Positions 7,770 to 51,572 are shown, numbered from the stretch's first letter. The stretch: DNA of 64,000 bases from Candidatus Woesearchaeota archaeon (GCA_964534185.1 CAZHOH010000001.1:19669-83668); one strand, 5' to 3'. The notes: generated by a model from the letters alone, not told the origin. Numbers and translations are program-made.

Positions 7770-9614
7770 TCACTTCAAACTCAGGACGCCAACCTCCTGG
7801 CGCCCGGTGACGTACACGCCATTCTTCCCAGCGAAGAGATGGCAACCTTCATTCACGAACGGCTCCGTGTCGGGGAACTCCTTTTCCACCTCCAGTAAGC
7901 CGCCGTTGTTCCTGATCCGCCTCAAGCCCTCGTCAGAGGCGCTTAGCAGCATCTTGTCAAACGCCCACTTTCCCCTGATTCCGGATAGCCAGGGATGGTC
8001 GGCCTGGTCGGTCTGCTCCGTCGCCAGAACCTCGCCGTGGCGACTGACCACGTGGCATTCGTTGACCTTCCTCTTGCCCTGCTGCGTGCTCACGAAGAAC
8101 CAGCAGCAATGATCCCCGAAAAAGCAGGTCGAGTCTATCAGTTGGCCGCGAACCTTGACGTTGACGGAGTCGTTGATCTTTCCGTTGACGTCGAATACGA
8201 AGGCCACGCTCAACTGGCCGGCGCGATAGAAGCCCAGGCCGAACTCCGGGCCCACCCAGAAGAGGGTCTGGTTCCTCAGCACGTCGCCTATCCTCTTGTA
8301 TCCCAGTATATCATCACGATAGAGTACACCGTCCTGCAACCAGAACTTATCGCGCCCGTTGGCGTCGAATATGGGCAGGTTGCCGTAGAAGTCGACCGGC
8401 AACTGCTCCAACTTGCCATCCTTGTCCACGACCAGCGCCGGCTTCCCGGACATGCCAATGAGAGTCTGATTCCCGCAGATGCGAAAGCGCATCTGGTGAT
8501 GCGCGGACCCCTTGAGGACCTTTACTCCCCCTTCTCTCCAAAAATGTCCGTCTTCCCAATAGAGCCACCTCATCTGGCCATCCTGCATGGCGGCGAACAG
8601 GATGGTTCCCTTCGTGGAGAATATCTTCTTGTATTCCACGTTGCCCTTGACGACCTCCTTAACGAGCGGAACGACCTTCTGGCACTCCGGGCAGGACTTT
8701 CTCGCGTGCTCGAAGCCGCAGCCCGGGCAGACGCGCCACTGCGTGTTCAGCAACTGCAGCGGGAACGGACCCCGCGTGTCCTTCTCGAACACCTGGCGTA
8801 AGTAGTCCGCCAGGTCGTCCGGCAGGGACTTGAGGGGCCGCGCGGGCTTCGGGTACTTGACCTCCGAGTCAAATACCGTGATCCGGTGCAGGGGCCGCGC
8901 CGGGTGGGGCACCTTGCGCTTCTTGTCCTTGGGACGAAAAACCCCCCCGTATGGGTCAACGAACATCAGGGTCTGCATGACCATGACCGCGAAGGCGTAC
9001 CAGTCGGAGTCCTCGTTGTGGGGCCTGACCAGGACGGGCCTGTTCTGGCGCGCGTCGCACAGCAGGGGATCCACGAATCGCTCCGTGTAGACACGGCAGG
9101 GAAACGTCCTGAACTGCCAACTGTCAGCGTCGATGACGTAGGGCGTATCGCCTTTGACGAGGACGTTGAGGTCGTTGAAGTCACCAACCACCGCGTCCTT
9201 CTCGTGGATCGCCTCGACCACCTGGGCCAGTTTCTTCAGAATCCTGTTGACGACATTGTTGTTGACGCCATGCCGGAAGGACTTCTCTCCATAGCGGAGC
9301 AGAGGCTCTGCCCCCTCGACCATGTCCATCACGTAGCCAACGATCTTTCCTTTCCTGTCGGTCGCAACGTCCAGCGGGACGATGACGTTCGACGGCACCC
9401 CCCGGGGGAACTGGGTCAACTTCTGCTGGTGCTCCTCTATGCGAATCCTCGCGGCCTGGCGCTGGTCGACGGTCAGGTGGTCGGGATGGTTCTCTCCCTT
9501 GAAGACTTTGAGCGCGTGACCACCGGGGATCCGGTAGACGTCAGCTTCGCCGCCTTTGCCTATGCTATCGGTAGGAGCAACGCTTATGCGCTTGCTTCTG
9601 ACGTAGACTTGCAT
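7770..9614 (-). CDS. Ser/Thr protein kinase with Zn-ribbon and a repeat-rich C-terminal domain
   Basis: Motifs IGKGGEADVYRI...ALKVFK (Gly-loop and Lys), VVGDFNDLNVLV (catalytic loop) and VIDADSW (DFG-equivalent). These are followed by CPGCGFEHARKSCPEC and about 280 aa of beta-rich sequence. Confidence 0.75.
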   Translation of the reverse strand: MQVYVRSKRISVAPTDSIGKGGEADVYRIPGGHALKVFKGENHPDHLTVDQRQAARIRIEEHQQKLTQFPRGVPSNVIVPLDVATDRKGKIVGYVMDMVEGAEPLLRYGEKSFRHGVNNNVVNRILKKLAQVVEAIHEKDAVVGDFNDLNVLVKGDTPYVIDADSWQFRTFPCRVYTERFVDPLLCDARQNRPVLVRPHNEDSDWYAFAVMVMQTLMFVDPYGGVFRPKDKKRKVPHPARPLHRITVFDSEVKYPKPARPLKSLPDDLADYLRQVFEKDTRGPFPLQLLNTQWRVCPGCGFEHARKSCPECQKVVPLVKEVVKGNVEYKKIFSTKGTILFAAMQDGQMRWLYWEDGHFWREGGVKVLKGSAHHQMRFRICGNQTLIGMSGKPALVVDKDGKLEQLPVDFYGNLPIFDANGRDKFWLQDGVLYRDDILGYKRIGDVLRNQTLFWVGPEFGLGFYRAGQLSVAFVFDVNGKINDSVNVKVRGQLIDSTCFFGDHCCWFFVSTQQGKRKVNECHVVSRHGEVLATEQTDQADHPWLSGIRGKWAFDKMLLSASDEGLRRIRNNGGLLEVEKEFPDTEPFVNEGCHLFAGKNGVYVTGRQEVGVLSLK

Positions 9615-10408
9615 CTTCTCACCACCACTAGCGTCGTGTCGTCCGGCAGCAGGCCCTTCTGCTCTTCCAGAAGACGGTTCTCGTAATCCACCTTGCGCGA
9701 GTTCCTGTTGATCAGGCGCAGCCGTCGAGAGACGGCGAAGGAGTTCCTGAAGTAGCGGTCATCAGCCCAGAACTGGGAGAGAGCGCCAACCTCCTCGCTC
9801 TTCCCCGGGAGTCTCCGGCGCCTGAGTTCCGGGATGTTATCAACCCCGTCGGTCCCGACAAGAATGGACTCGATGTCCGCCGTCTTCCACTCCCAACGAT
9901 CGAAGGCGCTCCTGTCCCGCTGGTCCGGGTTCGTAACCGCGTATCCGATATAGGACGGCGCGTTGTTCTGGTCGATGGAATGAACGACGAGTCCCTCCGA
10001 CAAGGTGCAGCGGTTAATCAGGCCGTCCCCGCACGACAGCACGGTTGTCTTCTCGTCGTCCATGACCAGGACGATGGAGGTAAAGAGGAAGAAATCTGAG
10101 ACGGCACTCGAGAGGCTGTCACTGACCCATTCCGAGACCACGGACAACTTCGAGGCCACCTCCATGCGCAGCCTCTCCTGGTCGACGCGGCCCAGCCTCC
10201 TTTTCTGCGCCCATGCCGACATCACGAGCATGCGGGCCCCGAGCAGCGCGCCTGCCTCGCTATACCTCCCGCTGCCGCAGCCGTCGCACACGGCCGCGAC
10301 AATTAGGTTGTCGTCGGTCTTCCAGAAGTAGGAGTCTTGGTTGTTCCGGCCGGCCATCTCGTGATCGCGGCCCCTGACGCTCCCACCGGCAATTTGGAAT
10401 CCGTTCAC
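9584..10408 (-). CDS. PP2C-family protein phosphatase
   Basis: GTG start at 10408. Motifs RGRDHEMAGRNNQDSYF, AAVCDGCGSG, VGTDGV and DDTTLVVV. It overlaps the kinase start by 31 nt. Confidence 0.75.
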   Translation of the reverse strand: MNGFQIAGGSVRGRDHEMAGRNNQDSYFWKTDDNLIVAAVCDGCGSGRYSEAGALLGARMLVMSAWAQKRRLGRVDQERLRMEVASKLSVVSEWVSDSLSSAVSDFFLFTSIVLVMDDEKTTVLSCGDGLINRCTLSEGLVVHSIDQNNAPSYIGYAVTNPDQRDRSAFDRWEWKTADIESILVGTDGVDNIPELRRRRLPGKSEEVGALSQFWADDRYFRNSFAVSRRLRLINRNSRKVDYENRLLEEQKGLLPDDTTLVVVRRCKSTSEASA

Positions 10409-10504
10409 GGGTCAACTGCTTTCCTAAATGCGGCAACTCGTAGAAGTCACCAAGGATTGGGTTCTTGCCCGCAAGCGCACATGTACGTACGCTTTGACAA
10501 GAAC

Positions 10505-11506
10505 CTAAATGAACTCTACCCCCCGGGGGGACAGGCGAACGCGCCTTATCTTGATCGTCTCGCTCTCGTCAAGTTGCTCTTGCCAAGCATCCCGGGATAG
10601 GTCGATGGTTCTTTTGTCCTCGAAGAGGGCAGGCCCCGAAACCAACTCCAGAGGCACGTCTCCGATGAAGGCCCCCCAGGCCTCCAGCGGCTCGCTCTCC
10701 TCCATTAGTTGGAGCGCGCGGCGGAAGGCTGGCATCAGGCGGGCAATGTAAAACGCCCGGTGAACACCATGTTCGCTGTCGTCCGCAATCATATCCTGCC
10801 AACACACGTCCAGCGTATGTTTGTGTATGCGCAAGAGACAGTCATCCAGCTCTCCCTTGGGCAGGACAGCCGGGGTTGCAACGTTCTCCTGTTCCCGGAG
10901 AACCTTCCACTCCTTGATGATGCGGACGATGGGGTCGCTCGGGGGCTGCTTCTCAAGGTCTTCCTCCATCCACCCTTCATGCGTTGTGGCAAGGTGGTAG
11001 AACTCCTCCATGCTGCAGACGTCACATTCGGACGACTGACGGAGCGCGTCGAACAAGATGTCTCGCATGCGGCTGACGTTGGCGCAGCAGGCGGGCAGGA
11101 TCTTGCTCTCGCATCCGCAAATATCGACCCATGTTATGGCGGCAAGTTGGATGCTGACGGCCCTGAGTTGGCCCTCAAAGTCATGGTCATATATCGGTTT
11201 CAATACGGATTCGTGACGGCTCTCATCTACCTTCAATGCGACGCGCGCATCCATGTTGCGCATGGCCTCGTCGGTTTTGCGCTGCGCGGCCTGGACAGCC
11301 TGGTCTCCCATCTCCTCTACGGTGCGCCGCCCCTTGAAGGTCGCCCGGATCTCGTAGGTCACCCGAACCGCCTCGGCATAGCCGTGGTCCATCAGCCACT
11401 TCAGATCCTCCCACTCGGGATGGCTGCGCTCGGCATTTAACTGCTGCTCGTGAACCAGCCTCCGCAGGGTCGACAGACGTTGCTTCTTCTTCTCAACCAT
11501 GGACAT
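10505..11506 (-). CDS. hypothetical protein (333 aa)
   Basis: ATG at 11506 with AGGAGAA upstream. No motif recognised. Confidence 0.6.
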   Translation of the reverse strand: MSMVEKKKQRLSTLRRLVHEQQLNAERSHPEWEDLKWLMDHGYAEAVRVTYEIRATFKGRRTVEEMGDQAVQAAQRKTDEAMRNMDARVALKVDESRHESVLKPIYDHDFEGQLRAVSIQLAAITWVDICGCESKILPACCANVSRMRDILFDALRQSSECDVCSMEEFYHLATTHEGWMEEDLEKQPPSDPIVRIIKEWKVLREQENVATPAVLPKGELDDCLLRIHKHTLDVCWQDMIADDSEHGVHRAFYIARLMPAFRRALQLMEESEPLEAWGAFIGDVPLELVSGPALFEDKRTIDLSRDAWQEQLDESETIKIRRVRLSPRGVEFI

Positions 11507-11559
11507 TGCGGTTCTCCTAGGCCAACTGGGGCTGTCATGCCTCGCGCTTGACTGTGTTC

Positions 11560-11588
11560 AATATAGACCCCACGGAGATCAAAGGCAA
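11560..11588 (-). promoter_or_regulatory. candidate sigma70-type promoter (-35 TTGCCT, 17-nt spacer, -10 TATATT)
   Basis: Read on the minus strand: the -10 is at 11565-11560 and the -35 at 11588-11583. It sits about 55 nt upstream of ATG 11506. Confidence 0.35.
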
Positions 11589-11664
11589 GTTGGTCTGTAC
11601 AACGAGTCCATGAGGCGCCCTATGACAGCCCGCATTGTCCGCAATCCCAGCTTCAACGTACGAT

Positions 11665-12411
11665 TCACTCAAGGTTTTGATCATCCTGTTGCGGCAGCGG
11701 CAGTGGGCCAGGCGTATATTCAGCCTCGTCATGTTCTCGTCCGCAACAGGCGCACCAGTATGATCCATCGGCAGGGTCAAGATCGATCTGCCCACACTCA
11801 GGACAGCAAGTCGGGACACCACACCAGTCCGTCAGTTCCTCCAGTTCATATTCTCGGCCTATTTCGTCGTAGGCCCTGAATTTCTCGGGCACATGGCAGG
11901 TCCGCTTGACCCGTACAATCCCGTAGTGCCCTCGCCACAACGCGTGGCGCGCAGCATACAGCCCCTCGCATCGTGGCTGATGCTTCATGGGCTCCCATAT
12001 TTCGTCTGCTATCAAATTGCCTGCTTTCTCAAACTCGCCGTCTCGGTTTGCTTCAGCGTCTTGGTTGATTTCCTTGTCGAAAATCATTATGGCATCGACT
12101 TTCCCAGAGACGCATTGCGCCGAGCAGTTCAGGCCTATCCCCTGCGACAAGGCCACTCCCAGCATCGCGGTGTGTTGGCGTTCAGAGGTCTTGATGTGCT
12201 TCGCGGGGGCGTAAACGTATATACATACCTCACACTCAAGATCCTCGAAATTTACAAAGATCTTCTGTGGCCACAAGTTGTTAATGGCCCACTTGCGACA
12301 GACATCTCGCAAGACATTTAGTCTCCTCATCCACTTCCGATCAGCATCCTCATGCCTATGTCTCTTCTGGTACTCTTCCAGCAACTGCAAGATTTCGTTA
12401 GCGTCAGTCAT
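11665..12411 (-). CDS. hypothetical protein with C-terminal zinc ribbon
   Basis: 248 aa with ATG at 12411. It carries CPECGQ...CACCG near the C-terminus. Confidence 0.55.
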   Translation of the reverse strand: MTDANEILQLLEEYQKRHRHEDADRKWMRRLNVLRDVCRKWAINNLWPQKIFVNFEDLECEVCIYVYAPAKHIKTSERQHTAMLGVALSQGIGLNCSAQCVSGKVDAIMIFDKEINQDAEANRDGEFEKAGNLIADEIWEPMKHQPRCEGLYAARHALWRGHYGIVRVKRTCHVPEKFRAYDEIGREYELEELTDWCGVPTCCPECGQIDLDPADGSYWCACCGREHDEAEYTPGPLPLPQQDDQNLE

Positions 12412-12827
12412 TTATTGTCCTTGTAGAGCGGTATGCCATCGGAGCACGCCCCGTCATATTTCTCGGCACAAGACGAACAAACGTCTGCCTCGTAAACCGT
12501 GCCCCAGCAGTTCCAATCTATCCTGCGCTCGGCCACCGCTCCGCAGCAATGACACTTCAAGTCGAGATCCCACTTTCTCTTCGGTACGTAGGAGTGCCAC
12601 ATGAGTCCGTACCTGATGTCAAGGTAGGCCTTGTTCTCCTCTTCTTTCAGGTGCTCCTTGGTGGAACTGGCCGCCGAGAAGAAGTCTGTCGCCTCGACCT
12701 TCCCACGGGCACGACCCAACTTCCAAGCCGCCTCCAGGGCTCTCGCTATAGCCACGGACGAGTCGTCAAGGCCAAACCTCTTTAGCACCATCGGTATTTC
12801 GCGGAATTCCAAGCAATCTAGTTGCAT
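12408..12827 (-). CDS. hypothetical Cys-rich protein (139 aa)
   Basis: ATG at 12827 with AAGGAGG 8 nt upstream. ATGA overlap with the next gene. CHCCG...CSSC cluster. Confidence 0.55.
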   Translation of the reverse strand: MQLDCLEFREIPMVLKRFGLDDSSVAIARALEAAWKLGRARGKVEATDFFSAASSTKEHLKEEENKAYLDIRYGLMWHSYVPKRKWDLDLKCHCCGAVAERRIDWNCWGTVYEADVCSSCAEKYDGACSDGIPLYKDNK

Positions 12828-15821: not shown

Positions 15822-18065
15822 TCAGTTGTCAATTTCTTGATCCACGTCCACCCACTGGTTGGCCAAGGGGTAGATGACCTTCATGATCGCCTTGTCAATT
15901 CTATGGCTTTTCCCGTTGATCATGTGCCATATTACCCCCCTCAAAACGGCCGGGGCATCTTTCTGGGCGATTCCTAGCTTCTTCTTGGCCTGCGAGTCGC
16001 CCTTGTCGTAGTGCTTGGCCAGAAAGTCGTTGGCCATGGCCAAGATCCTAGACTTTGCCTCGTCGTACTGGGACTCGATCTTGTCCTTGTATTGCTCGGC
16101 CAGTTCGCGCATTTCCTCCGGAATCTCGGCCATTCGAGACTCCGAGACCTTGCCGTCCGACATCGCCTCCCACATCAAGATGGGCGAGAGGCCCATCATG
16201 ACCTTCGACATGTCCTTGTACCAGTCGGTCTTGACCTTTACCCTGCGGCCGTCCTGAAACCTTATGACGTACCCCTCGAAGTGCTTGGCTTTACTCGCCA
16301 CCTCCAGGCAGTCTTCCAGGCTCAGCGAGTCGTAGCGCCGAACGACATGCAAATCGGCCAGTCTGGCCCACTCCTCGACCAGGTCGCGCGGGTACTCCTC
16401 CCCGGTATGGCGGTTGAAGGCCGCCAGCACGTAGAGCCCCGTCTCGTCGTAGTCCAGGATGATCTTCTGGTCATGATTGATGATCTCGAAGACCAGCGTC
16501 GCCTCGTCCGGCAAGGCCGACAGGTTCTTGCGCGAGATGTACTGTGTGGCCCACTGCGACCCAGGGGAATGGAACGACCCCCGGCTGGCCACCTTGTACT
16601 CGCCCTGGTGGCGGTAGAGGACGCCAAGCCATCCATCCAGCTTCTCGTAGACCTCGTAGGGCTTGTCCCACGGGAGGTTCTCGCGAAGGGTCTCCTCGCG
16701 CTCCCCGAGGTTGAAGAACTTTGGAAACGCCCAGGCCACGCACTCCCCCGTCTCAAGATCATAGATGTGGCCACGGCAGTTCAGCGTCACGTCGTCCCAG
16801 GCGCGATCGAATACACACTGGTCGGTATAGGTGTAGATCGCCAGCCTGTCGTCGTCCGTCCTGTCCCCGCGCAGCAGGCCCGCCTCCATGTACGCCTCCC
16901 TGCGGGCGACGTGCTCGTGGGGGTTCTCCTTACACCCGGGGAAGGAGTTCGTCGCGTAGGCGCGCTTGGCCTGGACGTAGTGGGGCCGCTGGGTAGCGGA
17001 GTCCCAGAACTTCAGGTACCCGCCGAACACGCAGCCGCCGTCAAGGTGGGCGATGTTGTTATAGCATGGCCCCGCGGGGTCGGGGTTGTGCCCGAAGAAG
17101 ACCCTCGGGGCGTCGGACGGCCATAGACGGTTCCACAAGATCCCCGTCTGCGCGTCGAAGTAGGAGTCCCCTCCGTAGTAGCGCATGTAGAGGCAGTCGG
17201 ACCTGAACTGCTCGTCCGGGTCTCGCGTCGGGTCGAATCCCGCGTGGACAACGTAGCCATGGGGAACCCGGAGGATCAGTGGGCAGCCCTTGAGGAAGGA
17301 GACGAACTCATCCTTTACCTGCTCGCCGTCCTCGTCCTGCTGGAACGAGTCGATCGTTGCCTGCAGGCCATGGGCTAGCTTGACCGGGTTGCCCTTGGCC
17401 CAGCGCAGGAACTTGTCCTCGTGGTTTCCAAGGACCATGTGGAGGTTGAGGGACATGAGGTGTCGCACCACCCCCAAGGGGTCTGGCCCTCGGTCGATGA
17501 CGTCCCCTACCGAGACGAGCACGTCCTGCTCGGGACGAAACCCAAGCTCGACGAGGCCCTGCTGAAACTCGTCATAGCACCCGTGTATGTCGCCGACGAT
17601 GATGTAGCGGCGGCCCCCGATCTCATCGCGGACGTCCTTAACGAGGACGCTGCACGGGGCTTCGCCCTCTACTGTCAACTCGTCGGCCTCCCTCCTCGAT
17701 GGCGCCTGGAACTGCGAGAAGTACATGCCGAGGGCCTTTCCCGCGTTCTCCGGGCGCAGCGTGGGATGTTTGCCACGCGAGGCGATCCTCTCGCGGCACA
17801 CGTCGCAGTTCTCGTTCAGCCATACGATCTTAGTGTGATAACCGGCCTTCTTGGCGGGAGACAGGTACCGGCGCCGCTGCTGGCGATTGTGGTTGATGCG
17901 GTCGACGACGACGTTGTCCCCGCGCGCCACTGCCTCCTCGAACAGGCGCAGGTGATCCTTGCCCTGATCGTCCTGGGAAACCCGCACGTAGCCCTTGAGG
18001 TTCTTGTCGCAGTAAGTCGTCTTGCCCGACCCCTGCGGGCCAACCATCAGCACGAGATCGCTCAT
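15822..18065 (-). CDS. trifunctional RNA-repair-type enzyme: P-loop polynucleotide kinase + metallophosphatase + RNA ligase (Pnkp-like domain order)
   Basis: 747 aa with ATG at 18065 and AAGGAGG upstream. Walker A GPQGSGKTT. Calcineurin-like motifs GDIHGC, GDVIDRG and GNHE. C-terminal ligase motifs EKLDGW (KxDG), FEII, EGYVIR and KVKTDWY. Confidence 0.75.
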   Translation of the reverse strand: MSDLVLMVGPQGSGKTTYCDKNLKGYVRVSQDDQGKDHLRLFEEAVARGDNVVVDRINHNRQQRRRYLSPAKKAGYHTKIVWLNENCDVCRERIASRGKHPTLRPENAGKALGMYFSQFQAPSRREADELTVEGEAPCSVLVKDVRDEIGGRRYIIVGDIHGCYDEFQQGLVELGFRPEQDVLVSVGDVIDRGPDPLGVVRHLMSLNLHMVLGNHEDKFLRWAKGNPVKLAHGLQATIDSFQQDEDGEQVKDEFVSFLKGCPLILRVPHGYVVHAGFDPTRDPDEQFRSDCLYMRYYGGDSYFDAQTGILWNRLWPSDAPRVFFGHNPDPAGPCYNNIAHLDGGCVFGGYLKFWDSATQRPHYVQAKRAYATNSFPGCKENPHEHVARREAYMEAGLLRGDRTDDDRLAIYTYTDQCVFDRAWDDVTLNCRGHIYDLETGECVAWAFPKFFNLGEREETLRENLPWDKPYEVYEKLDGWLGVLYRHQGEYKVASRGSFHSPGSQWATQYISRKNLSALPDEATLVFEIINHDQKIILDYDETGLYVLAAFNRHTGEEYPRDLVEEWARLADLHVVRRYDSLSLEDCLEVASKAKHFEGYVIRFQDGRRVKVKTDWYKDMSKVMMGLSPILMWEAMSDGKVSESRMAEIPEEMRELAEQYKDKIESQYDEAKSRILAMANDFLAKHYDKGDSQAKKKLGIAQKDAPAVLRGVIWHMINGKSHRIDKAIMKVIYPLANQWVDVDQEIDN

Positions 18066-18122: not shown

Positions 18123-19112
18123 TCAATCGTCGATGCGGCTCAATAGGTCTGATTTGAGCGCGTCGGGCAATGCCTTCAAAATAAGCAGCCATTCCTCTGT
18201 GTTTTTGACGGGATGAAGAGTGAATATCTCGTTGGCCCTTGAAATGGCTTGATTTGCGACCCCGGGGCCTACGCGACCCTCAGCCACGTCGTAATGGAGC
18301 CTTTTCTCGTCCTCGTAATAGCAGACTCTCTCGGATAAAGGTTTGGTTTTTCGAGCCTCAAATCTAGCCTTTCTCAGATATATACCGAAGAACAACTCGC
18401 TGCTAGTAATCGTATTGTCACGCATGACGAGAGGGAATGTGTTGCCTGGGATCTCATTCAGGACGAGAGATACAGCCCTGCGTGATAGCCACCAGAAATG
18501 GCCCTGAAGAGAATGCAGGCAACCTATGTTAGGAACGTCTCTATGGTTCCTCTGCCATTGCTCCGATGCATTGTCGTACCTCTTTCTGATCAGTTTGGGC
18601 AGGTAGCGCACCAGTAAGCCTGACACGTCATACGGGGCAGCATCATGGCGCAAGATCAGGGTGTCCGGGTCTACGACGGCCAGAAAATCCGAGTCGCCCT
18701 GATTGATGAATTTACGAAAAATGTCCCTGTACGAGGAGAAGAGGTGATGCCTGTTGTCTCCGGCAAAGACGCTCAGCGGTAGTCCTACGTCGGGCAGTTT
18801 CCTTTCGCGACGCTGGCATATCCATACATTACCAACGTTTTGAAAGGCGGTAACGGCGAGCCTGAGGCATCTGTGGATGACCTCGTCCGGCTCGTCATAG
18901 ACCAAAGCAGCCACGTCTATCTTCATTTTTCTTCTAGGGGCGCCTCCCGTCGCAAGCACCGAACCGATCCCCTCGACCTCAACCTGCTTGGCCTTGGCCT
19001 TGGCCTTGGCCTTGGCTTTGGCCGGAGGATTGAGCGAGAAGCCCCAGCACCTCTCAGATCCGTAGGAGCAACCTCGTCCCCCGGGGGACGAGGTTTTTCT
19101 TTGTCGAGCCAT
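18123..19112 (-). CDS. leader-bearing protein, possible GT-A glycosyltransferase
   Basis: Starts with the shared leader MARQRKTSSPGGRGCSYGSERCWGFSLNPPA, then (AK)n. The body carries FLAVVDPDT (DxD-like). The functional assignment is weak. Confidence 0.6.
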   Translation of the reverse strand: MARQRKTSSPGGRGCSYGSERCWGFSLNPPAKAKAKAKAKAKQVEVEGIGSVLATGGAPRRKMKIDVAALVYDEPDEVIHRCLRLAVTAFQNVGNVWICQRRERKLPDVGLPLSVFAGDNRHHLFSSYRDIFRKFINQGDSDFLAVVDPDTLILRHDAAPYDVSGLLVRYLPKLIRKRYDNASEQWQRNHRDVPNIGCLHSLQGHFWWLSRRAVSLVLNEIPGNTFPLVMRDNTITSSELFFGIYLRKARFEARKTKPLSERVCYYEDEKRLHYDVAEGRVGPGVANQAISRANEIFTLHPVKNTEEWLLILKALPDALKSDLLSRIDD

Positions 19113-19159
19113 GTTGCCTCCTACCAGCCTGTTGGGATGCCGAGAGAAAAATCCCTTCC
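19021..19159 (-). repeat. conserved 5' UTR + leader cassette, copy A
   Basis: Covers about 45 nt upstream of the ATG (including GGTAGGAGGCAAC) plus about 31 codons. It contains the 26-nt perfect palindrome 19070-19095. A few mismatches separate it from copies B and C. Confidence 0.9.
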
Positions 19160-19203: not shown

Positions 19204-20346
19204 ATGAACATCGTATCGCTGTTTACGGGAGCCATGGGGCTAGATCTGGGGCTAGAGGCCGCGGGCTTCCAGGCCGAGGTATGCGCCGACACCGACCGGT
19301 TCTGCCGCGAGACCATCGCCGCCAACAAGCCAGAGTCCAGGATCCTCGATGACGTCGCCAAGGTAACGATAGACACGGCGCCGCGAAACCCCTGCATAGT
19401 GGCAGGGGGGCCTCCCTGCCAGTCATGGTCGACGGCCGGCAGGCGCAAGGGGTTCGACGACCCCCGGGGGGAACAAGTCCTAGAGTTTGGGCGGGTGGTT
19501 GCCGACTTGCGGCCCCGCTTTTTCGTGATGGAGAACGTGCGCGGACTCACCTCCATGCTGACCGGCGACAACCGCTTGGCCATAAACGTCATAGAGGAAG
19601 AGTTCGAGTCCATCGGCTACAAGGTGGTCCGCGGCGTGCTGAACGCGGTCGACTATGGAACCCCACAGTTTCGGGACAGACTCATCATGATCGGATCCCG
19701 CGACGGCGAAGACATCTTCCTGCCATTGCCCACGCACTTCCAGAAACACCAGGAAGAAAGCATGAGGTGGGTGACTCTTGGCAAAGCCCTCCAGGGCATA
19801 GCCATAGATTCCCCGGGGGACTTCCAGGAATTCTCGCCCCGGCGCAAATCATGGCTGGAGAAGATCCCCCCGGGGGGGAATTGGAAGAGCCTGTCGGAGC
19901 AAGACCAGAGGAAGGCCATGGGAGAGGCCTACAACTCTGGGGGAGGCAAGACAGGCTTCTTCCGCCGGTTGTCCTACGACGAGCCCTCCCCGACGCTGGT
20001 GACCTCGCCGACGCAGAAATCCACGATTTTGTGCCACCCGGAGAAAACCCGCCCCCTAAGCACGCTGGAATACGCGCGGATACAGGACTTCCCCCGGGGG
20101 TGGAGCATACGGGGGAACACAACGGAAGTCTACAGGCAGATAGGGAACGCCGTCCCCGTCAGGCTTGGGCGCGCAATCGGGCAGGCGTTGCTCTCGACCA
20201 TGAGCAAAAGCCACGTGGTAAAGGCCTCCCGCGTGCGCAAAGACGCCAGCGAGGAAGAAAGGACGCCAGTCCGCCCGCGCAAGAGAGCGGAGGAAGAAGA
20301 GCTCACCAAAGCAGGCATGGAGGCCTGGGGGATGCAAGATGTTTGA
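19204..20346 (+). CDS. dcm: DNA (cytosine-5)-methyltransferase
   Basis: Trimmed to ATG 19204 (MNIVSLFTGAMGLDLGLE, motif I). Also GGPPCQSWS (motif IV), FVMENVRGL (VI), QFRDRLIMIG (VIII) and GNAVPV (X). Confidence 0.9.
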   Translation: MNIVSLFTGAMGLDLGLEAAGFQAEVCADTDRFCRETIAANKPESRILDDVAKVTIDTAPRNPCIVAGGPPCQSWSTAGRRKGFDDPRGEQVLEFGRVVADLRPRFFVMENVRGLTSMLTGDNRLAINVIEEEFESIGYKVVRGVLNAVDYGTPQFRDRLIMIGSRDGEDIFLPLPTHFQKHQEESMRWVTLGKALQGIAIDSPGDFQEFSPRRKSWLEKIPPGGNWKSLSEQDQRKAMGEAYNSGGGKTGFFRRLSYDEPSPTLVTSPTQKSTILCHPEKTRPLSTLEYARIQDFPRGWSIRGNTTEVYRQIGNAVPVRLGRAIGQALLSTMSKSHVVKASRVRKDASEEERTPVRPRKRAEEEELTKAGMEAWGMQDV

Positions 20347-21163: not shown

Positions 21164-21327
21164 GGGAAGGAATTTTTCTCTCGGCATCCCAACAGGCTGG
21201 TAGGAGGCAACATGGCTCGACAAAGAAAAACCTCGTCCCCCGGGGGACGAGGTTGTTCCTACGGATCCAAGAGGTGCTGGGGCTTCTCGCTCAATCCTCC
21301 GGCCGCGGCCCCACGTCAGGCCAAGGT
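21164..21327 (+). repeat. conserved 5' UTR + leader cassette, copy B
   Basis: No mismatch noted by eye against copy C (reverse complement) over about 160 nt. It contains the palindrome 21229-21254. Confidence 0.9.
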
Positions 21328-23593
21328 CGAGGCCAAGGTCAAGGCCAAGGTCAAGGCCAAGAACAAGGAGGAAGAGACGGTCATCGAACTAGCCTCATTG
21401 AACCCGGACGTCGTCTACTCGACCCAAGGCGGCGGGTTCGGCGACCACTGGCTCCTCTGCGGCGCTCTCCTACAGGCAAGTGAACTGCATGGCAAGCCAT
21501 TCAGGCTGCGCCGGGGCAAGACGAGGGGTGAACCAAGGCCTTTCGCCGTGGACTACCAGGAGTACTTCGACACGCAAGGAGAGATCGTCGAGTCGGACAG
21601 CGAAGCCAAAGTCGTATTCTTCTCCAGGGATGGCGGCAAGAACGACCTCGAAAGGCTCATGAAAGACGGGTATGACAATCCTGTCCCGGAGCGCATCATC
21701 CCCTGGAACTACCTTTTCGAGGTTCCCCTTGCCAAGACAAGAAAAACACACCTTGGATTGCGCTCCAGGGTCATCGCCTATCAGTTCAGGGCCAGATCCA
21801 GAAAGGACATCAAGGAATGCGCCCCCGGGGAGGAGGATCGCTTCCTGGAGGAGGCGGCGCTCGCCGGCTATAGAACGATCGAGGTAGGGAAGCATGTCCC
21901 CTTGGATAGATGTTTGGAAGTTCTGTCATGGTGCGAGTTCTACGTCGGCATAGACACAGGACCTACCCACCTCGCGCTCAACGTCGGCGCGCCGACGTGG
22001 GTCGTCCGCAACGGCGCCGACCTTGACTTTACATACAAGCATAGGAACATCACCGCGCTTCCGCGCCTCGGGGACGCAGGCTCTCTCCTGACGGCCTGCC
22101 AGCCACAAAAGAAAGCCTCCTTCCTCGTCCCCTGCAAGAACCGCTTGGAGTTTGCCAAGCAGACTCTCCCTCTGCTGGATTTCTTCGTGGGACAGGGGCA
22201 CGAGGTCATATTCGTGGACTACGATTGCCCGCAACGATCAGGGGAGTGGGTCAAGAGCAACCATCCCGGCGTGACGGTCATCGAGGTAAAGGACAAGAAA
22301 AAGTATAACGCTGGAGAGGCTCGCAACCTAGCGGCCGCGGCGGCTAGGAACGACTGGCTTTGCTGGATGGACTGCGACATAAAAGTCCATCCGAACTTCC
22401 TGGCCGAGCTGTGCCGCCTGGAAAAAGGCCAGTTCCTGTTCTTCGCCAAGAACGACCTCGTCCCCCGCAGGGGGATGGGTGGCTTGATGGCATGCTCCCG
22501 AGACGCGTATTACGAAGCAGGAGGCTACAGCAGTTACTACGACGAGTACGGCGGCAAAGACATAGAGTTCAAGTACAGGCTCTTCCAGAACGGAGAGGAG
22601 CCGCTGCAAGTCAACCCGCTCTGCGTCGAGCACGTCCCGCACCCTGATCATCTAAGGGTTCAGTTCTACGACAAGAAGAACCGACGGCTCGCGATCAAGG
22701 ACAGCAACGCGGCGCTCAAGCAACGCATGCGGCACTTCGCAAAGAGAAACGAGCCACCCCCGTGGCAATTGAACTATGACAAGGCCGAGTACTCTCAGTT
22801 CTTCAACAAGGTCATCGTCAAACAACTTAGCCTTCATGTCACCGACCATTGCAACTTCAACTGCATCGGGTGCAACCACGCTTCCCCATACTACGAGCCG
22901 AACAATCTCGACCCGGTATGCTTCTCGGAGCCGCTCCAGAAACTGGGGGAATTCTGCTACGCCAAGGAAATACACCTAGTTGGAGGAGAACCCTTCCTGC
23001 ACCCTGACCTGTACGGATTCATCCGCTCCATCAAGGAGAGCAACAAGGTAAGCGACTTCATTCGCCTCTATACAAACGGCTTCTGGCTGTCAGAGCGCGG
23101 CCTGCTGCGTCACGCGCCAGTCCTCGACCAAATAGATGCGCTTCATGTCAGCATGCACCCCGAGTCCCCCGGGGGCGAGGTTGTTGAACAGATGCTGAGA
23201 ACGATCAAGAAGAAACATCACATAGTGGCCCAGAAACACCGTAACGACAGGTTTTACAAGGTCGGGTTTCGAGAATCCCCCGCTGGGAGAGGATCCTGTC
23301 CCGTCAAGAAGTGCATGCACCTGTTGCCTGACGGAAGACTGGTCAAATGTGCCGTCGCGGGCTACTACGCCCCGAAAAGCGAGGATGTTACGAAAGGCTT
23401 CATGGACCATTCCGGATCCGCTTTCTACGATGTGTCCCAGGGAAATTGCGAAAGCTTTGCCAAGTGGTATAATGGCATGGCTCAGTGCTGCAGGTTCTGT
23501 GGCTACGCGGAAGACTCCATACCATACGTGGGCAGAGTTGCAGGAGTTGGTCATGTCAAGAATCAGCGGAACAAAAGAGTGGGCGACGGATAG
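21212..23593 (+). CDS. leader-bearing multidomain protein: GT9-like (GT-B) + GT2-like (GT-A) + radical SAM domain
   Basis: 793 aa. Shared leader plus a K/V/A/E repeat linker. GIDTGPTHLALNVGAPTWVV is heptosyltransferase-like. FLVPCKN...IFVDYDCP...WMDCD is GT2/DxD. LHVTDHCNFNCIGCNH (CxxxCxxC, nt 22850-22873) with LVGGEPFLHP. Confidence 0.7.
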   Translation: MARQRKTSSPGGRGCSYGSKRCWGFSLNPPAAAPRQAKVEAKVKAKVKAKNKEEETVIELASLNPDVVYSTQGGGFGDHWLLCGALLQASELHGKPFRLRRGKTRGEPRPFAVDYQEYFDTQGEIVESDSEAKVVFFSRDGGKNDLERLMKDGYDNPVPERIIPWNYLFEVPLAKTRKTHLGLRSRVIAYQFRARSRKDIKECAPGEEDRFLEEAALAGYRTIEVGKHVPLDRCLEVLSWCEFYVGIDTGPTHLALNVGAPTWVVRNGADLDFTYKHRNITALPRLGDAGSLLTACQPQKKASFLVPCKNRLEFAKQTLPLLDFFVGQGHEVIFVDYDCPQRSGEWVKSNHPGVTVIEVKDKKKYNAGEARNLAAAAARNDWLCWMDCDIKVHPNFLAELCRLEKGQFLFFAKNDLVPRRGMGGLMACSRDAYYEAGGYSSYYDEYGGKDIEFKYRLFQNGEEPLQVNPLCVEHVPHPDHLRVQFYDKKNRRLAIKDSNAALKQRMRHFAKRNEPPPWQLNYDKAEYSQFFNKVIVKQLSLHVTDHCNFNCIGCNHASPYYEPNNLDPVCFSEPLQKLGEFCYAKEIHLVGGEPFLHPDLYGFIRSIKESNKVSDFIRLYTNGFWLSERGLLRHAPVLDQIDALHVSMHPESPGGEVVEQMLRTIKKKHHIVAQKHRNDRFYKVGFRESPAGRGSCPVKKCMHLLPDGRLVKCAVAGYYAPKSEDVTKGFMDHSGSAFYDVSQGNCESFAKWYNGMAQCCRFCGYAEDSIPYVGRVAGVGHVKNQRNKRVGDG

Positions 23594-24347
23594 CGTCAAC
23601 TGCTGCCTTGGCTGCAGCCACAACTGCAGGTACTGCTACGCCCGGGCCAACGCGATGCGCTTCGGCAAAATATCATCCCCCGGGGAATGGTCCGATGAAC
23701 AGGTCAATGACAAGGCCCTCGAGAAGAAGTTCGGGAAGAAGGCCGCGGGGCGACGGTTCATGTTCCCGACCACCCACGACATTACTCCCACGAACGTCGA
23801 CGCCTGTCTGAAACTGCTGAAGAACGTCCTCTCCCCCGGGAACGAGGTTCTGATCGTCAGCAAGCCCCACCTCGAGTGCATCTCGCGCCTGACCGACGAG
23901 CTGGTCCAGTTTAAGGGACAGTGCATGTTCCGGTTCACAATCGGGGCCTCTGACGACGACATCCTGTCGTTTTGGGAGCCAGGCGCCCCTGGATTCAAAG
24001 AGAGGTTGGATTCTCTGCGTCTCGCTCGCGACCGCGGGTGGCAGACCTCAGTCAGCGCAGAACCCATGCTTGACGCGGACAATGCCTACGATCTCTTCCA
24101 TGCCCTGGAGCCATGGGTCACCGACAGCATCTGGATTGGCAAGATGAACCGCATCACCCTTCGTGTCATCGACAATGATGACCCCCTGGTCTCGAGGCAC
24201 GTCGCGAAGATAGAGGCGGGCCAGACTGACGAGCGGGTGAGGCAGATTTACGAGATGCTGAGGAACGAGCCGAAGGTCAGGTGGAAGGAGTCGTACAAGA
24301 AGGTCACTGGGATCGAACTATCCCAAGAGGCCGGACTTGACATTTGA
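23553..24347 (+). CDS. radical SAM protein (COG1533/SplB-like by motif)
   Basis: Trimmed to ATG 23553, which has AGGAG upstream; it overlaps the previous stop. Motif NCCLGCSHNCRYCYA. Confidence 0.6.
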   Translation: MSRISGTKEWATDSVNCCLGCSHNCRYCYARANAMRFGKISSPGEWSDEQVNDKALEKKFGKKAAGRRFMFPTTHDITPTNVDACLKLLKNVLSPGNEVLIVSKPHLECISRLTDELVQFKGQCMFRFTIGASDDDILSFWEPGAPGFKERLDSLRLARDRGWQTSVSAEPMLDADNAYDLFHALEPWVTDSIWIGKMNRITLRVIDNDDPLVSRHVAKIEAGQTDERVRQIYEMLRNEPKVRWKESYKKVTGIELSQEAGLDI

Positions 24348-32350: not shown

Positions 32351-32713
32351 ATGAAGGGTCAGCCATGCGAGAACCAGACAACGAAAGGAAATATCGTGGG
32401 GGACACAGAAGATACACAGGCGATCAATGAGGCGATCAATGAGGCCATCGAACTGAATATAATGGGACAGGTTGGAGATCGCGTTCCAGACTATTGTTCG
32501 TCGCTGGACGCCGTAGCGGAGGCAGAAGCCAAGGCAAGAGAGATGGGCCTATGGCACGAGTATGGAAGGGCGCTGAAGGATCTGCTCCTAGGCAACGCCG
32601 ACCTGCTTGTAATGAGCACCGAGCAGTTCATGACAGGAGCTGCGGCCACGGCCGAACAGAGATCCCGGGCCATCCTGTCCGCTGTTAAACAAGCAAGGAA
32701 AGGAAAGAAGTAA
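32351..32713 (+). CDS. hypothetical protein (120 aa)
   Basis: ATG at 32351. Its C-terminal tail SAVKQARKGKK is shared with the next gene product. Confidence 0.5.
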   Translation: MKGQPCENQTTKGNIVGDTEDTQAINEAINEAIELNIMGQVGDRVPDYCSSLDAVAEAEAKAREMGLWHEYGRALKDLLLGNADLLVMSTEQFMTGAAATAEQRSRAILSAVKQARKGKK

Positions 32714-32748
32714 TGGCCAGGAGATTCTTCTACGACACAGAGTTCATA
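32675..32748 (+). repeat. 74-bp direct repeat, copy 1 (gene junction)
   Basis: CTGTCCGCTGTTAAACAAGCAAGGAAAGGAAAGAAGTAATGGCCAGGAGATTCTTCTACGACACAGAGTTCATA. Confidence 0.9.
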
Positions 32749-33252
32749 GAATATCCACCCCTGTTGAAGGACGGTCGATCCCGGAAGGGAACGATCGACC
32801 TAATAAGCATTGGCATCGTGTCAGAGGAAGGGGAGACGTTCTACGCCATCAACAGCCACTTCGATCCGACCATGGCCAACCAGTGGGTGACCGACAACGT
32901 CCTCTCGAAGCTCCCCTCGAGGGAGTCGCCGGAATGGATGTCCCTGCCGGCCATGAAGAAGAGGGTGCTAGGCTTCCTGCGGCCATCGAATGATGACCCG
33001 GTCGAGTTATGGGCATACTACGGGGACTATGACCACGTGGCCCTCTGCTGGTTATTCGGATCCATGGTCGAATTGCCAGAGGGAATGCCAATGCTAACCA
33101 TGGATCTGAAGCAACTTGCCAAGCACCTCGGGGATCCTGACCTACCCGAGCAAGGGGAAGGAGAGCACGATGCCCTCGAGGACGCTAAATGGAACCTCGA
33201 GGTCTTCGAGTTTCTGTCCGCTATTAAACAAGCAAGGGAAGGAAAGAAGTAA
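32713..33252 (+). CDS. DEDDh-family 3'-5' exonuclease
   Basis: FFYDTEFIE (Exo I), YYGDYDHVAL (Exo II) and HDALEDAKW (Exo III, H-x4-D). Confidence 0.7.
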   Translation: MARRFFYDTEFIEYPPLLKDGRSRKGTIDLISIGIVSEEGETFYAINSHFDPTMANQWVTDNVLSKLPSRESPEWMSLPAMKKRVLGFLRPSNDDPVELWAYYGDYDHVALCWLFGSMVELPEGMPMLTMDLKQLAKHLGDPDLPEQGEGEHDALEDAKWNLEVFEFLSAIKQAREGKK

Positions 33253-33287
33253 TGGCCAGGAGATTCTTATACGACACAGAGTTCATA
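33214..33287 (+). repeat. 74-bp direct repeat, copy 2
   Basis: Same sequence as 32675-32748, with 2 substitutions and a 1-nt insertion. Confidence 0.9.
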
Positions 33288-41097: not shown

Positions 41098-42120
41098 CTA
41101 CGGGGCCAGCCTCCTTTTGATTTCCTCGCGGACAAACACGCGCGTCGCGTCCAGTTTTTCCTGGAGAGTCATCTTATCCCGCTCCTTTCCCCAGTAGAGA
41201 ACGCTCACGTCGGGCCTGTCATGGAGCGGAAGCCATCCTGGCACGTATAGTCCCCAGAACTCGTCTACCGAGATCGCCGGCATACCAAAGGAAGGGGCAA
41301 GAAAGCCCCCGCCTCCCATGCTTAATGTAAACTCCGCCCCGCTCATTACCTCTAGCTGTCTCTGCAGGTACTCGGTTCGAACCGGCTTCTTCAGTGTCTC
41401 CAGAAACATAGTCTCGTTGCCAATCCTGTTACGGTCTACCCGATCCAGCCGATCTAGGCCCGTGTGTGGGGCCCAACCAACCCCGATGACTTCGTAGCCG
41501 TAGTGGTTGACCAACTCCTTTAATTCCAGCCATTCTAGGAAAGGCAGGCTCCTGCCTCCCGCCGTGCCACCAAACTCGTCTCCTTTCAGCCACCTTTCGG
41601 ACAAGCAGGGTATGAAGCACACGTACTTGCGAGGATCCTTCTTGACCCAGGACCAGTCCATCTTCGCATTGACCAGTTCCCTCGGGAAGTCCCTCCGCAT
41701 CTTGGAAAATAACTTCAGAACGGCGCTCTTTCCCGTCCCCTCCTTGGCCGGGAAATGATATGAATCGCTGAACTGGCTCCAAACCTCTTCCTTCAGGTCG
41801 TCAAGCCACTCGGAATGTATATTGACCTCGTCTCCGAGCCACCGCTTCAACAGGAAAGCTGGCCATATGCGGGTGACGCATACCTCGCCGAACTCACCGC
41901 CGTGAATGATGTTCCTAAGATCCAGATCTATCTTCTCCCTGGGACGGCGCAGAGGGGAGGCCTCAACCTCCTCCTCAACCTTGGCCTCAACCTCCTCCTC
42001 CTCAACCTTGGCCTGACGTGGGGCCGCGGCCGGAGGATTGAGCGAGAAGCCCCAGCACCTCTTGGATCCGTAGGAACAACCTCGTCCCCCGGGGGACGAG
42101 GTTTTTCTTTGTCGAGCCAT
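41098..42120 (-). CDS. leader-bearing GT9-like (GT-B) glycosyltransferase-like protein
   Basis: Trimmed to ATG 42120 (AGGAGG upstream). Shared leader MARQRKTSSPGGRGCSYGSKRCWGFSLNPPAAAPRQAKV, then an E/V/K/A repeat. MGGGGFLAPSFGMPAISV near the C-terminus. Confidence 0.6.
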   Translation of the reverse strand: MARQRKTSSPGGRGCSYGSKRCWGFSLNPPAAAPRQAKVEEEEVEAKVEEEVEASPLRRPREKIDLDLRNIIHGGEFGEVCVTRIWPAFLLKRWLGDEVNIHSEWLDDLKEEVWSQFSDSYHFPAKEGTGKSAVLKLFSKMRRDFPRELVNAKMDWSWVKKDPRKYVCFIPCLSERWLKGDEFGGTAGGRSLPFLEWLELKELVNHYGYEVIGVGWAPHTGLDRLDRVDRNRIGNETMFLETLKKPVRTEYLQRQLEVMSGAEFTLSMGGGGFLAPSFGMPAISVDEFWGLYVPGWLPLHDRPDVSVLYWGKERDKMTLQEKLDATRVFVREEIKRRLAP

Positions 42121-42168
42121 GTTGCCTCCTACCAGCCTGTTGGGATGCCGAGAGAAAAATTCCTTCCC
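42005..42168 (-). repeat. conserved 5' UTR + leader cassette, copy C
   Basis: Reverse complement matches copy B over about 160 nt. It contains the palindrome 42078-42103. Confidence 0.9.
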
Positions 42169-42372: not shown

Positions 42373-43107
42373 TCACTCCGTATGCGGTGATTCTTGGGTG
42401 CATGACACTATCCTGTTGGCTGTGACATAGGACTCGGGGGTGCCAGCGTCGGTCCACTCCCCATCCAGGCAGGCGATCCGCAGCTTGCCCTCCCGAACGA
42501 ACTCCATGTTCAGATCAGTGACCTCTAACTCGCCGCGGTTGCTAGGCTGCAGCCTAGGCAACAAAGAGAAGGCATGCGGCGGGTAAAAATAGATGCCCGT
42601 CTGTGCCAGATTCGACCTTGGCTCCCGGGGCTTCTCCTCGATCGCGACGACGCGATCCTCGCTTACCTCGACCACCCCGTACCTGCGGGGATCCTCGACT
42701 TCCTTGACGAGAATCATGGCGTGGTCGTCGGGCAGCGCGTCGTAGGACTGAACGAAAGGAAGCAGCGGATCCGAGAATATATTGTCGCCAAGGAGCACGC
42801 AGAACCGATCCCTGCCGACGAAGTCGTCGCACAACATAAGCGCTTGCGCTATTCCGCCCGCCTCGTCCTGGATGCGGTAGGTCAGCTCGCACCCCAGTTT
42901 CCTTCCGGAGCCGAGGAGCGCCATGAAGTCCCCGGAATGCTCGGGTCCGCAAATGACCATGATCTTTCGGATGCCGCCCTCGATGAGTTTGGCCAAGGGC
43001 CACATGATCATCGGCTTCATGCCGACGGGCAACAAGTGCTTGTTTGTCACCTGCGTCAGGGGGTGCAGCCTAGTGCCCGTGCCGCCGGCAAGGATGATTC
43101 CTTTCAT
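42373..43107 (-). CDS. sugar-1-phosphate nucleotidyltransferase (RmlA-like, short form)
   Basis: Trimmed to ATG 43107. MKGIILAGGTGTRLHPLT, then LGDNIF. Confidence 0.75.
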   Translation of the reverse strand: MKGIILAGGTGTRLHPLTQVTNKHLLPVGMKPMIMWPLAKLIEGGIRKIMVICGPEHSGDFMALLGSGRKLGCELTYRIQDEAGGIAQALMLCDDFVGRDRFCVLLGDNIFSDPLLPFVQSYDALPDDHAMILVKEVEDPRRYGVVEVSEDRVVAIEEKPREPRSNLAQTGIYFYPPHAFSLLPRLQPSNRGELEVTDLNMEFVREGKLRIACLDGEWTDAGTPESYVTANRIVSCTQESPHTE

Positions 43108-43113
43108 GATGTC

Positions 43114-46029: not shown

Positions 46030-46087
46030 CACGGATCCTCGCTAGATCGCCTAAAGGAAGGATATCCGCACGCGGCGTCCGTTGCAA

Positions 46088-51563: not shown

Positions 51564-51572
51564 TTTCTTCTC

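Follow-up and report, generated by a model that had tools for sequence, protein, structure and literature searches.

The 64,000-nucleotide stretch of DNA analyzed here (Candidatus Woesearchaeota archaeon, GCA_964534185.1 CAZHOH010000001.1:19669-83668; hereafter, the window) encodes on its + strand, at 21212..23593, a tri-domain protein of 793 codons in a frame without a stop. This protein, which we call the fusion, combines a leader and linker, a domain resembling glycosyltransferase (GT) family 9, a GT2 domain, and a twitch-type radical S-adenosylmethionine (SAM) domain. We propose, with a probability of roughly 55%, that it is a soluble glycan-building enzyme of a probable large phage, whose radical SAM domain oxidizes or epimerizes a sugar carbon. 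Because it is physically tied to two GTs, the radical SAM domain probably acts on a substrate that they produce or consume. To our knowledge, sugar-acting radical SAM enzymes come only from antibiotic and nucleoside natural-product pathways, and none has been established for cell-surface or viral glycans. The fusion is plausibly the first handle on radical SAM–modified sugars in a phage glycan pathway. If our interpretation is true, keto or epimerized sugars made by radical chemistry join the phage glycosylation repertoire, and the fusion offers a tractable single-polypeptide system for GT–radical SAM coupling. It would also suggest that large phages from environments poor in oxygen use unusual sugars to decorate virions or the surfaces of their hosts.

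A genuine polypeptide with GT and radical SAM domains

The fusion is one genuine polypeptide. Its ATG (21212) is preceded at a distance of 4 nt by AGGAGG (21202-21207), a strong Shine-Dalgarno sequence (SD), and the GC content at third codon positions (GC3) is even over its four parts (0.70 to 0.77). An exhaustive HMMER search of 1.84 billion representative proteins returned one full-length relative, P0005 (718 aa, 53% identity), which aligns in one stretch to fusion residues 58-769 and has an identical domain order. It is encoded on two Logan metagenome contigs (L086 and L087), which come from another sample and have a GC content of 0.39 as compared to 0.57 here. Pairwise alignment showed that this divergent orthologue keeps the GGGFGD, DTGPTH, VDYxCP, DxD, CxxxCxxC, and GGEP motifs and all C-terminal cysteines, as well as the linker between the GT2 and radical SAM domains (RNxPPPWxLNYDxAEYxQF). 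Furthermore, Logan contig L091, assembled separately from run SRR7048225, matches the window over 13,050 nt with 100% identity and covers fusion residues 30-793. We take the fusion to be under selection.

These data bear on the possibility that a frameshift or another assembly or sequencing error joined separate GT and radical SAM genes, which the initial annotation of this stretch had itself named as a test of its claim. The near uniqueness of the architecture and the metagenomic source of the sequence would fit such an artefact. However, the uninterrupted P0005 architecture, present on two contigs whose sample and GC content both differ from those of the window, the conserved linkers between the domains, the identical 13-kb assembly, and the uniform GC3 speak against it. 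Because of the P0005 architecture, the conserved linker, and the L091 assembly, we regard a frameshift or chimera as excluded for practical purposes. The ORF (open reading frame), the motifs, and the coordinates given in the initial annotation were all correct. The fusion has no hydrophobic segment (the Kyte-Doolittle 19-residue mean peaks at 0.87), and a membrane-embedded synthase was ruled out, as there is no transmembrane segment.

The central part of the protein (residues 298-515; 22103..22756, +) is a GT2 domain of the GT-A fold, belonging to a subfamily marked by the VDYxCP motif. It matches Pfam Glycos_transf_2 (PF00535) at residues 303-400 with 37.8 bits against a cut-off of 23.3, and its C-terminal part matches Glyco_transf_7C at residues 422-462. 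The DxD motif (residues 387-389, D387-C-D389) is conserved in homologues, of which HMMER found hundreds that stand alone. The AlphaFold2 (AF2) model of this domain has a predicted local distance difference test (pLDDT) score of ~90, and its top GT matches in Foldseek are the chondroitin polymerase K4CP, ppGalNAc-T, and b4GalT7. The GT2 DxD domain of the initial annotation was thus borne out by the Pfam score, the motif, and the modeled fold. K4CP (2Z86) and the multi-GT proteins of giant viruses, which are the top matches among the BFVD viral models, have the GT2 fold and the DxD motif in common with the fusion but lack a radical SAM domain.

The C-terminal part (residues 535-775; 22814..23536, +) is a compact radical SAM domain. 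Pfam Radical_SAM (PF04055) matches residues 543-669 with 36.1 bits against a cut-off of 29.5. The cluster motif CNFNCIGC occupies residues 547-554 (nt 22850-22873) and the GGE motif is G591-G592-E593. The three cluster cysteines, GGE, and five C-terminal cysteines (696, 701, 713, 760, and 763; nt 23297-23500) are invariant in 16 family members. These C-terminal cysteines probably form an auxiliary-cluster (twitch) module with one [4Fe-4S] cluster. The AF2 model (pLDDT ~90) matches SpeY, BtrN, and viperin in Foldseek, consistent with a partial TIM-barrel fold. The relatives of this domain are usually stand-alone proteins of 240 to 270 aa, and they define a radical SAM family of compact size (~240 aa), found repeatedly next to GTs in uncultivated viruses and bacteria. 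Scans of IMG/VR and GTDB with the profile of this family detected only distant, generic radical SAM genes. The C-terminal CxxxCxxC radical SAM domain of the initial annotation is supported by Pfam, fold, and motifs at the nucleotides given, and its cluster cysteines, whose lack of conservation had been named as a possible refutation, are invariant both in the family and in P0005.

The remaining domain (residues 56-297; 21377..22102, +) carries GGGFGD at residue 73 and DTGPTH at residue 248, and its assignment is the least secure of the three. Pfam Glyco_transf_9 (PF01075) matches residues 227-262 with 15.4 bits, below the cut-off of 22 (E = 0.012), and the corresponding match of P0005 is also rated weak. 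We built a profile from five sequences (the fusion, the N terminus of P0005, the stand-alone protein P0061, the middle of P0014, and the product of a 340-aa window gene at 41098-42120). It matches WaaC (heptosyltransferase I; E = 1.5e-5) and TibC (E = 5.5e-4), in the nucleotide-sugar, donor-binding half only. The similarity to WaaC (2GT1/6DFE) and TibC (4RAP) includes a GD motif near the N terminus and a D(T/S)G..HL motif. In contrast, the domain of the fusion has ~245 aa as compared to ~330 to 400 aa in GT9 heptosyltransferases, and no genes for ADP-heptose synthesis were seen in the window. Thus, GT9-like appears to be a reasonable label. The heptosyltransferase-like GT-B domain of the initial annotation agrees with the WaaC and TibC profile matches, but the Pfam score is below its cut-off, the AF2 model has low confidence, and a complete GT-B fold with two Rossmann-like halves is tentative. 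Likewise, the three folded domains with auxiliary clusters that the initial annotation proposed to look for were found in part: the GT2 and radical SAM folds are well modeled and the five C-terminal cysteines are invariant, but the GT9-like domain is poorly modeled.

The complete architecture is very rare. Neither IMG/VR nor Joint Genome Institute (JGI) metagenome scans contained further full-length relatives, none of the BFVD models spans both the GT and radical SAM parts (query-normalized TM-score, TMq, at most 0.28), and megablast and tblastn searches found no close relative in cultured phages. A word-index search with the whole fusion returned only the fusion itself and one weak GT2 match, probably because the low-complexity linker swamped it. 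We scanned the 150 best HMMER matches to the fusion with custom domain hidden Markov models (HMMs). Most had either GT2 alone (124) or radical SAM alone (14), followed by GT2-GT2 (5), radical SAM–GT2 (3: P0082, P0103, and P0128), and one protein with three GT2 domains. Three architectures that include the GT9-like domain occurred once each: the domain alone (P0061), GT2 followed by GT9-like (P0014, in which the same GT2 is joined to the GT9-like domain in permuted order), and GT9-like, GT2, and radical SAM (P0005).

Two other kinds of radical SAM–GT2 proteins were observed. P0082, P0103, and P0128 are metagenomic proteins of ~540 aa on short contigs, in which an N-terminal SPASM-like radical SAM domain is fused to a GT2 of the VDYxxP subfamily. 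On contig L215, a 1511-aa protein (8029-12564, +) with Cupin_2, Radical_SAM, SPASM, and three GT2 domains lies directly 3' of a stand-alone relative of our radical SAM domain, in an ABC transporter–type polysaccharide locus. All four proteins share with the fusion the covalent joining of an auxiliary-cluster radical SAM domain to GT2, and the three shorter ones also share the GT2 subfamily. However, in all four proteins the radical SAM domain precedes GT2, there is no GT9-like domain, and the radical SAM domain belongs to another, SPASM-like subfamily, which matches ours in the N-terminal core only.

The initial annotation knew of no described architecture with a covalent link between two GT folds and a radical SAM enzyme. 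The complete link is indeed found in only one other protein among 1.84 billion, and our literature search found no paper describing radical SAM–GT fusions, but covalent radical SAM–GT2 links as such are not unique. As judged from these proteins and from the loci described below, radical SAM enzymes became coupled to these GTs several times, both covalently and by genomic position; by the Rosetta-stone argument, this suggests that they act in one common pathway. The fusion joins two known kinds of protein, namely, a multi-GT enzyme and a twitch radical SAM sugar enzyme.

The radical SAM domain and its proposed chemistry

The closest characterized relative of the radical SAM domain is SpeY, the twitch radical SAM dehydrogenase from spectinomycin biosynthesis (7WZV/7WZX/7X0B), which was the best match both by profile and by structure. 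The family profile matches SpeY (7wzv) with E = 4.6e-23, ahead of YydG (2.4e-14), MoaA, SkfB, BlsE, BtrN, and viperin. In Foldseek, SpeY aligns over 253 columns with E = 2.6e-15 and a target-normalized TM-score (TMt) of 0.64, and BtrN (4M7T) is also close (TMt 0.56). SpeY, BtrN, and the domain studied here have in common a compact core, CxxxCxxC, GGE, and a cysteine-rich C-terminal module, and in each pathway a GT supplies, or in our case would supply, the glycoside. In contrast to the fusion, in which a domain of ~240 aa follows two GTs, SpeY belongs to an actinomycete aminoglycoside cluster and not to a phage glycan system. The domain has five invariant C-terminal cysteines, and SpeY has no equivalent of Cys701 in the profile alignment. 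Four of the five (Cys696, 713, 760, and 763) are spaced similarly to the residues that we take to be the auxiliary-cluster ligands of BtrN (Cys169, 188, 232, and 235).

Further parallels are offered by HygY and NeoN, radical SAM epimerases of aminoglycoside sugars. As cited in PMC10991966, the title of the HygY report names this protein a twitch enzyme and attributes the choice between epimerase and dehydrogenase activity to a single cysteine. These enzymes, which we compare with the fusion by description, act on a sugar carbinol carbon, as proposed for the fusion, and the family studied here has an extra invariant cysteine. We hypothesize that Cys701 is the equivalent of the hydrogen-donor cysteine of HygY and NeoN.

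The genomic setting of the relatives also points to sugars. With the exception of L085, where no recognizable GT was near the radical SAM gene, all loci that we read place a stand-alone relative of this domain next to or not far from GTs or sugar enzymes. The neighbors include a GT25, a DXD-type GT, and a GT9-domain protein that also matches our GT9-like HMM (L081); a SpoU methylase, a carbamoyltransferase, GT2, and GT4 (L082 and L217); Bac_transf, an ABC transporter, an RfbT/FkbM-GT4 fusion, and several GT2s (L215). In two loci, the contact is direct: a gene for UDP-galactopyranose mutase (GLF) abuts the radical SAM start codon in L216, and a GT2 gene overlaps the radical SAM stop codon in L218. 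This linkage of the radical SAM family and GT2 with sugar enzymes is recurrent. In addition, directly upstream of P0005 on L086/L087 lies a homologue (25% identity, E = 8e-15) of a 329-aa window protein (18123..19112, −), which carries the same leader as the fusion, has a conserved DPDT motif, and is possibly GT-A–like.

In the mechanism that we propose, the two GT modules (GT9-like and GT2 with DxD) would transfer sugars to one and the same acceptor. Within the radical SAM domain, CxxxCxxC would ligate the [4Fe-4S] cluster that cleaves SAM, and the C-terminal cysteines probably ligate one auxiliary cluster. The 5'-deoxyadenosyl radical would abstract hydrogen from a sugar carbinol carbon, on either the growing glycan or the nucleotide-sugar donor. 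The substrate radical could then lose an electron to the auxiliary cluster to give a keto-sugar, as in SpeY and BtrN, or alternatively, regain hydrogen from the opposite face to give an epimer, as in HygY and NeoN. We lean slightly toward epimerization over ketone formation because the BtrN-like spacing of Cys696, 713, 760, and 763 leaves the invariant Cys701 as a possible hydrogen donor. The fusion would work together with the leader-tagged 329-aa partner, whose orthologue is a conserved neighbor, and the leader-tagged GT9-like paralogue of 340 aa and the nucleotide-sugar genes of the phage probably join the pathway. Candidate acceptors are proteins, of the virion or otherwise, and glycans of the host envelope. 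We infer the order of the steps and the acceptor as well as the chemistry, the last of these from relatives and gene context.

The idea of a glycan carrying a radical-chemistry modification, put forward in the initial annotation, is thus in line with the twitch sugar dehydrogenase relatives and the sugar-gene contexts. Its list of candidate modifications was broader (C-methylation, epimerization, and C-C or thioether links), and the chemistry of the closest characterized relatives is oxidation or epimerization at a carbinol carbon, not the formation of C-C or thioether links. C-methylation is unlikely because no cobalamin domain was found: the Pfam matches of the fusion include neither a B12-binding nor a methyltransferase family.

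We also considered whether the radical SAM domain modifies a protein acceptor instead, by epimerization or thioether formation of the YydG or SkfB type, thereby preparing or decorating the site at which a phage or host protein is glycosylated. In the profile search, YydG epimerase ranks second among the PDB relatives and SkfB is also matched; the GT9-like profile matches TibC, a protein heptosyltransferase, and the GT2 domain resembles ppGalNAc-transferases, which act on peptides. However, SpeY scores nine orders of magnitude better than YydG by profile, and whereas the YydG match covers profile positions 7-145, that of SpeY (10-187) extends into the first part of the C-terminal cysteine region. 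Moreover, we noticed no precursor-peptide gene or RRE-like domain, and the radical SAM relatives neighbor nucleotide-sugar enzymes such as GLF, as well as carbamoyltransferase. A peptide-directed reaction is possible, but it appears to fit the ranking of similarities less well than action on a sugar, and we consider it rather unlikely.

Several observations weigh against a sugar-modifying glycan enzyme. With regard to the GT9-like domain, the assignment is a profile match of 58 residues, and the AF2 model shows alternating beta-alpha elements with pLDDT mostly below 60 on a shallow alignment. The full architecture is represented by two examples, the fusion and P0005. The radical SAM domain is only ~22% identical to SpeY, and its second-best structural relatives act on peptides (YydG and SkfB) or nucleotides (MoaA and viperin). 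All NCBIfam matches are far under their cut-offs, including N_Twi_rSAM (NF033640), which reaches 30.3 bits against 170 and covers residues 583-630 only; because of these scores, we describe the domain as a relative of the twitch sugar enzymes that falls outside the curated families. The window contains no virion structural genes, which leaves the phage origin as an inference. Last, the locus lies between a DNA C5-methyltransferase and an enzyme similar to spore photoproduct lyase (SPL), a position that could equally suggest a DNA target.

The adjacent radical SAM gene and a possible DNA target

The fusion is followed by a second radical SAM gene (23553..24347, +), whose ATG at 23553 stands behind AGGAG and which encodes an SPL-like stand-alone protein of 264 aa with CSHNCRYC at residues 21-28. 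As the initial annotation had stated, it overlaps the fusion by exactly 41 nt and encodes a different radical SAM protein. We found more than 5,360 relatives of this gene, typically with 50 to 58% identity and of equal length, many of them on viral contigs of 80 to 527 kb; the label given to these relatives by JGI is DNA repair photolyase. SPL is the sole PDB relative by profile (E = 1.6e-4) and the best Foldseek match (TMq 0.58, E = 1.8e-6; model pLDDT 92). However, the curated SPL models were not reached (PF20903, 17.3 against 27; TIGR04070, 12.9 against 400). The protein shares with SPL (4FHC-4FHG) and COG1533 a CxxxCxxC motif near the N terminus but has 264 aa as compared to 340 aa. Judging from these comparisons, it resembles SPL without being an SPL and represents a separate, highly conserved phage family.

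The initial annotation implied that the two radical SAM genes belong together, and a translationally coupled pair acting on one substrate might be expected from the 41-nt overlap on the same strand. Additionally, one other homologue of the SPL-like protein has a different radical SAM gene nearby and a Rhamno_transf gene two genes away. The wider distribution argues otherwise. In 32 IMG/VR loci with an SPL-like gene, no relative of any fusion domain was found within 10 kb; the recurrent neighbors there include putative portal-like and terminase-like ORFs, as judged by eye. The gene that follows P0005 on L087 is on the opposite strand and unrelated, and the SPL-like gene is absent there. The overlap itself comes from the 25-residue tail of the fusion, which is not conserved and has low model confidence. 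In addition, a sigma-70–like promoter match (23446-23473, +; TTGCGA, 16 nt, TATAAT, with an upstream TG forming an extended −10; 10/12) is contained in the 3'-terminal part of the fusion gene, 80 nt upstream of the second gene. Thus, a functional pair was rejected as a quite improbable arrangement that has no counterpart beside the orthologue or in the 32 loci of this huge independent phage family. Because the SPL-like gene is unlinked to the fusion elsewhere, their adjacency is probably incidental.

The same stretch of genes could be read as a pathway of DNA hypermodification, in which the C5-methyltransferase makes 5-methylcytosine, a radical SAM enzyme (fused or SPL-like) activates the methyl group without oxygen in place of TET or 5mYOX, and the GTs glycosylate the base. 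On one strand, the C5-methyltransferase (Pfam domain from residue 32, ~19204-20346), orf261, the fusion, and the SPL-like gene follow each other in this order. SPL chemistry acts on the thymine methyl bridge in DNA, and the leader of the fusion is strongly basic. In phages, GT-A and GT-B enzymes encoded beside C5-methyltransferases are known to glycosylate DNA (bioRxiv 10.1101/2023.12.21.572611). On the other hand, the Pfam matches of the ~50 window ORFs scanned include no 5mYOX, TET, or hydroxymethylase family, and no relative of orf261 could be detected. In the orthologous locus, we found no relative of the window methyltransferase within the 4.7 kb that precede P0005, and the flanking genes there have no Pfam match. 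The stand-alone radical SAM relatives occur in polysaccharide-type loci (Bac_transf, ABC transporter, and GLF). T4 β-GT and JGT are absent among the 50 Foldseek PDB matches listed, where TarP ranks 42, and the SPL-like gene is not linked to the fusion elsewhere. We therefore consider a DNA target unlikely. A more elaborate version, in which the four genes would form an oxygen-independent pathway, with the radical SAM enzyme functionalizing 5-methylcytosine, the GTs building a radical-modified disaccharide, and the basic leader tethering three GT-like enzymes to DNA, seems very unlikely.

The leader repeat and other features of the window

The leader of the fusion is part of a repeat of 140 to 169 nt that is present in three copies with 97 to 99% identity (19020-19159, −; 21164-21332, +; 42000-42168, −), in agreement with the shared leader of the initial annotation. 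Each copy comprises a 48-nt 5' region, the SD, the ATG, and the first 31 to 40 codons, and the copies head three different GT-like genes, each of which continues through its own K/E/A/V-rich linker. The copy of the fusion (21164..21332, +) contains the SD at 21202-21207, the ATG at 21212, and the first 40 codons, with the leader beginning MARQRKTSSPGGRGCSYGSKRCWGFSLNPPA. The leader of 31 to 40 residues and the linker together make up fusion residues 1-55, which are specific to this genome and absent from P0005; the orthologues on L086 have no leader. The leader is probably translated, because it follows a strong SD and its reading frame continues, via three different linkers, into that of three different GT-like enzymes. 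Its DNA also contains a perfect 22-nt palindrome (21231-21252), which on the antisense strand is the strongest terminator-like site of the region. The whole leader RNA is not unusually stable (z = −1.2), and no exact match to the leader hairpin was found in IMG/VR. The leader may serve as a translational operator common to the three genes or as a tag for targeting or tethering, or it may simply be a cassette that spread recently. Its presence on three glycan enzymes is a second, independent clue to the co-regulation or co-location of a pathway by a phage.

Another duplicated expression-start cassette is formed by a 74-nt direct repeat (32675-32748 and 33214-33287, 96% identity), which covers the ribosome-binding site and first codons of two adjacent + strand genes. 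The first C5-methyltransferase ORF has a listed start at 19111 (+), back to back with the leader-gene ATG at 19112 and inside the repeat; because the Pfam methylase domain begins at residue 32, its true start is probably the ATG at ~19204.

Besides the fusion, the leader heads the gene of the 329-aa partner and that of the 340-aa paralogue of the GT9-like domain (41098..42120, −). The partner and orf261 had no match in Pfam, PHROG, NCBIfam, or PDB. The 340-aa gene adjoins an RmlA-like nucleotidyltransferase (42373-43182). Further glycan genes of the window encode an FnlA/PseB-type dehydratase, a WecB-type 2-epimerase, an RmlD-like reductase, a LegC/PseC-type aminotransferase, a GNAT protein, an FkbM methyltransferase, a sulfotransferase, a SASA protein, four more GT2s, and a GT6. 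Many of them lie on the − strand in a low-GC island (~49500-62200; GC 0.46 to 0.50, as compared to 0.55 to 0.62 elsewhere) of nucleotide-sugar and glycan genes. The island contains the WecB-type 2-epimerase, SASA esterase, FkbM, sulfotransferase, LegC/PseC-type aminotransferase, GNAT, and RmlD-like genes, two tandem GT2 paralogues, and the PseB/FnlA-type dehydratase. It looks horizontally acquired and is followed by the GT6 gene (62281-63099).

Phage-like genes in the window encode a sigma-70–type factor, an NAD-dependent DNA ligase, a Pnkp-phosphatase-RNA-ligase fusion, a PARP-WGR protein, PP2C, an intein-bearing C5-methylase, and PHROG-only families. A tRNA scan of the window found no tRNAs, the ORFs scanned included no cellular housekeeping genes, and an Rfam scan of the window was empty.

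Some of these genes have unusual features of their own. In the second C5-cytosine DNA methyltransferase (38977-41070, −), an intein with Hint_2 and Intein_splicing matches is located between the methylase motifs. The 747-aa polypeptide encoded at 15822-18065 (−) consists of an AAA_33 P-loop kinase, with a weak match to a polynucleotide-kinase PHROG, a calcineurin-like phosphatase, and a T4-type RNA ligase. Together with a separate RlaP-family nucleotidyltransferase (44962-46032, −), it looks like an RNA-repair toolkit. Near the start of the window, the gene of a protein with PARP catalytic and WGR domains (887-2461, −) adjoins a third radical SAM gene (2486-3373, −), which encodes 295 aa, the N-terminal half of which resembles MoaA and viperin.

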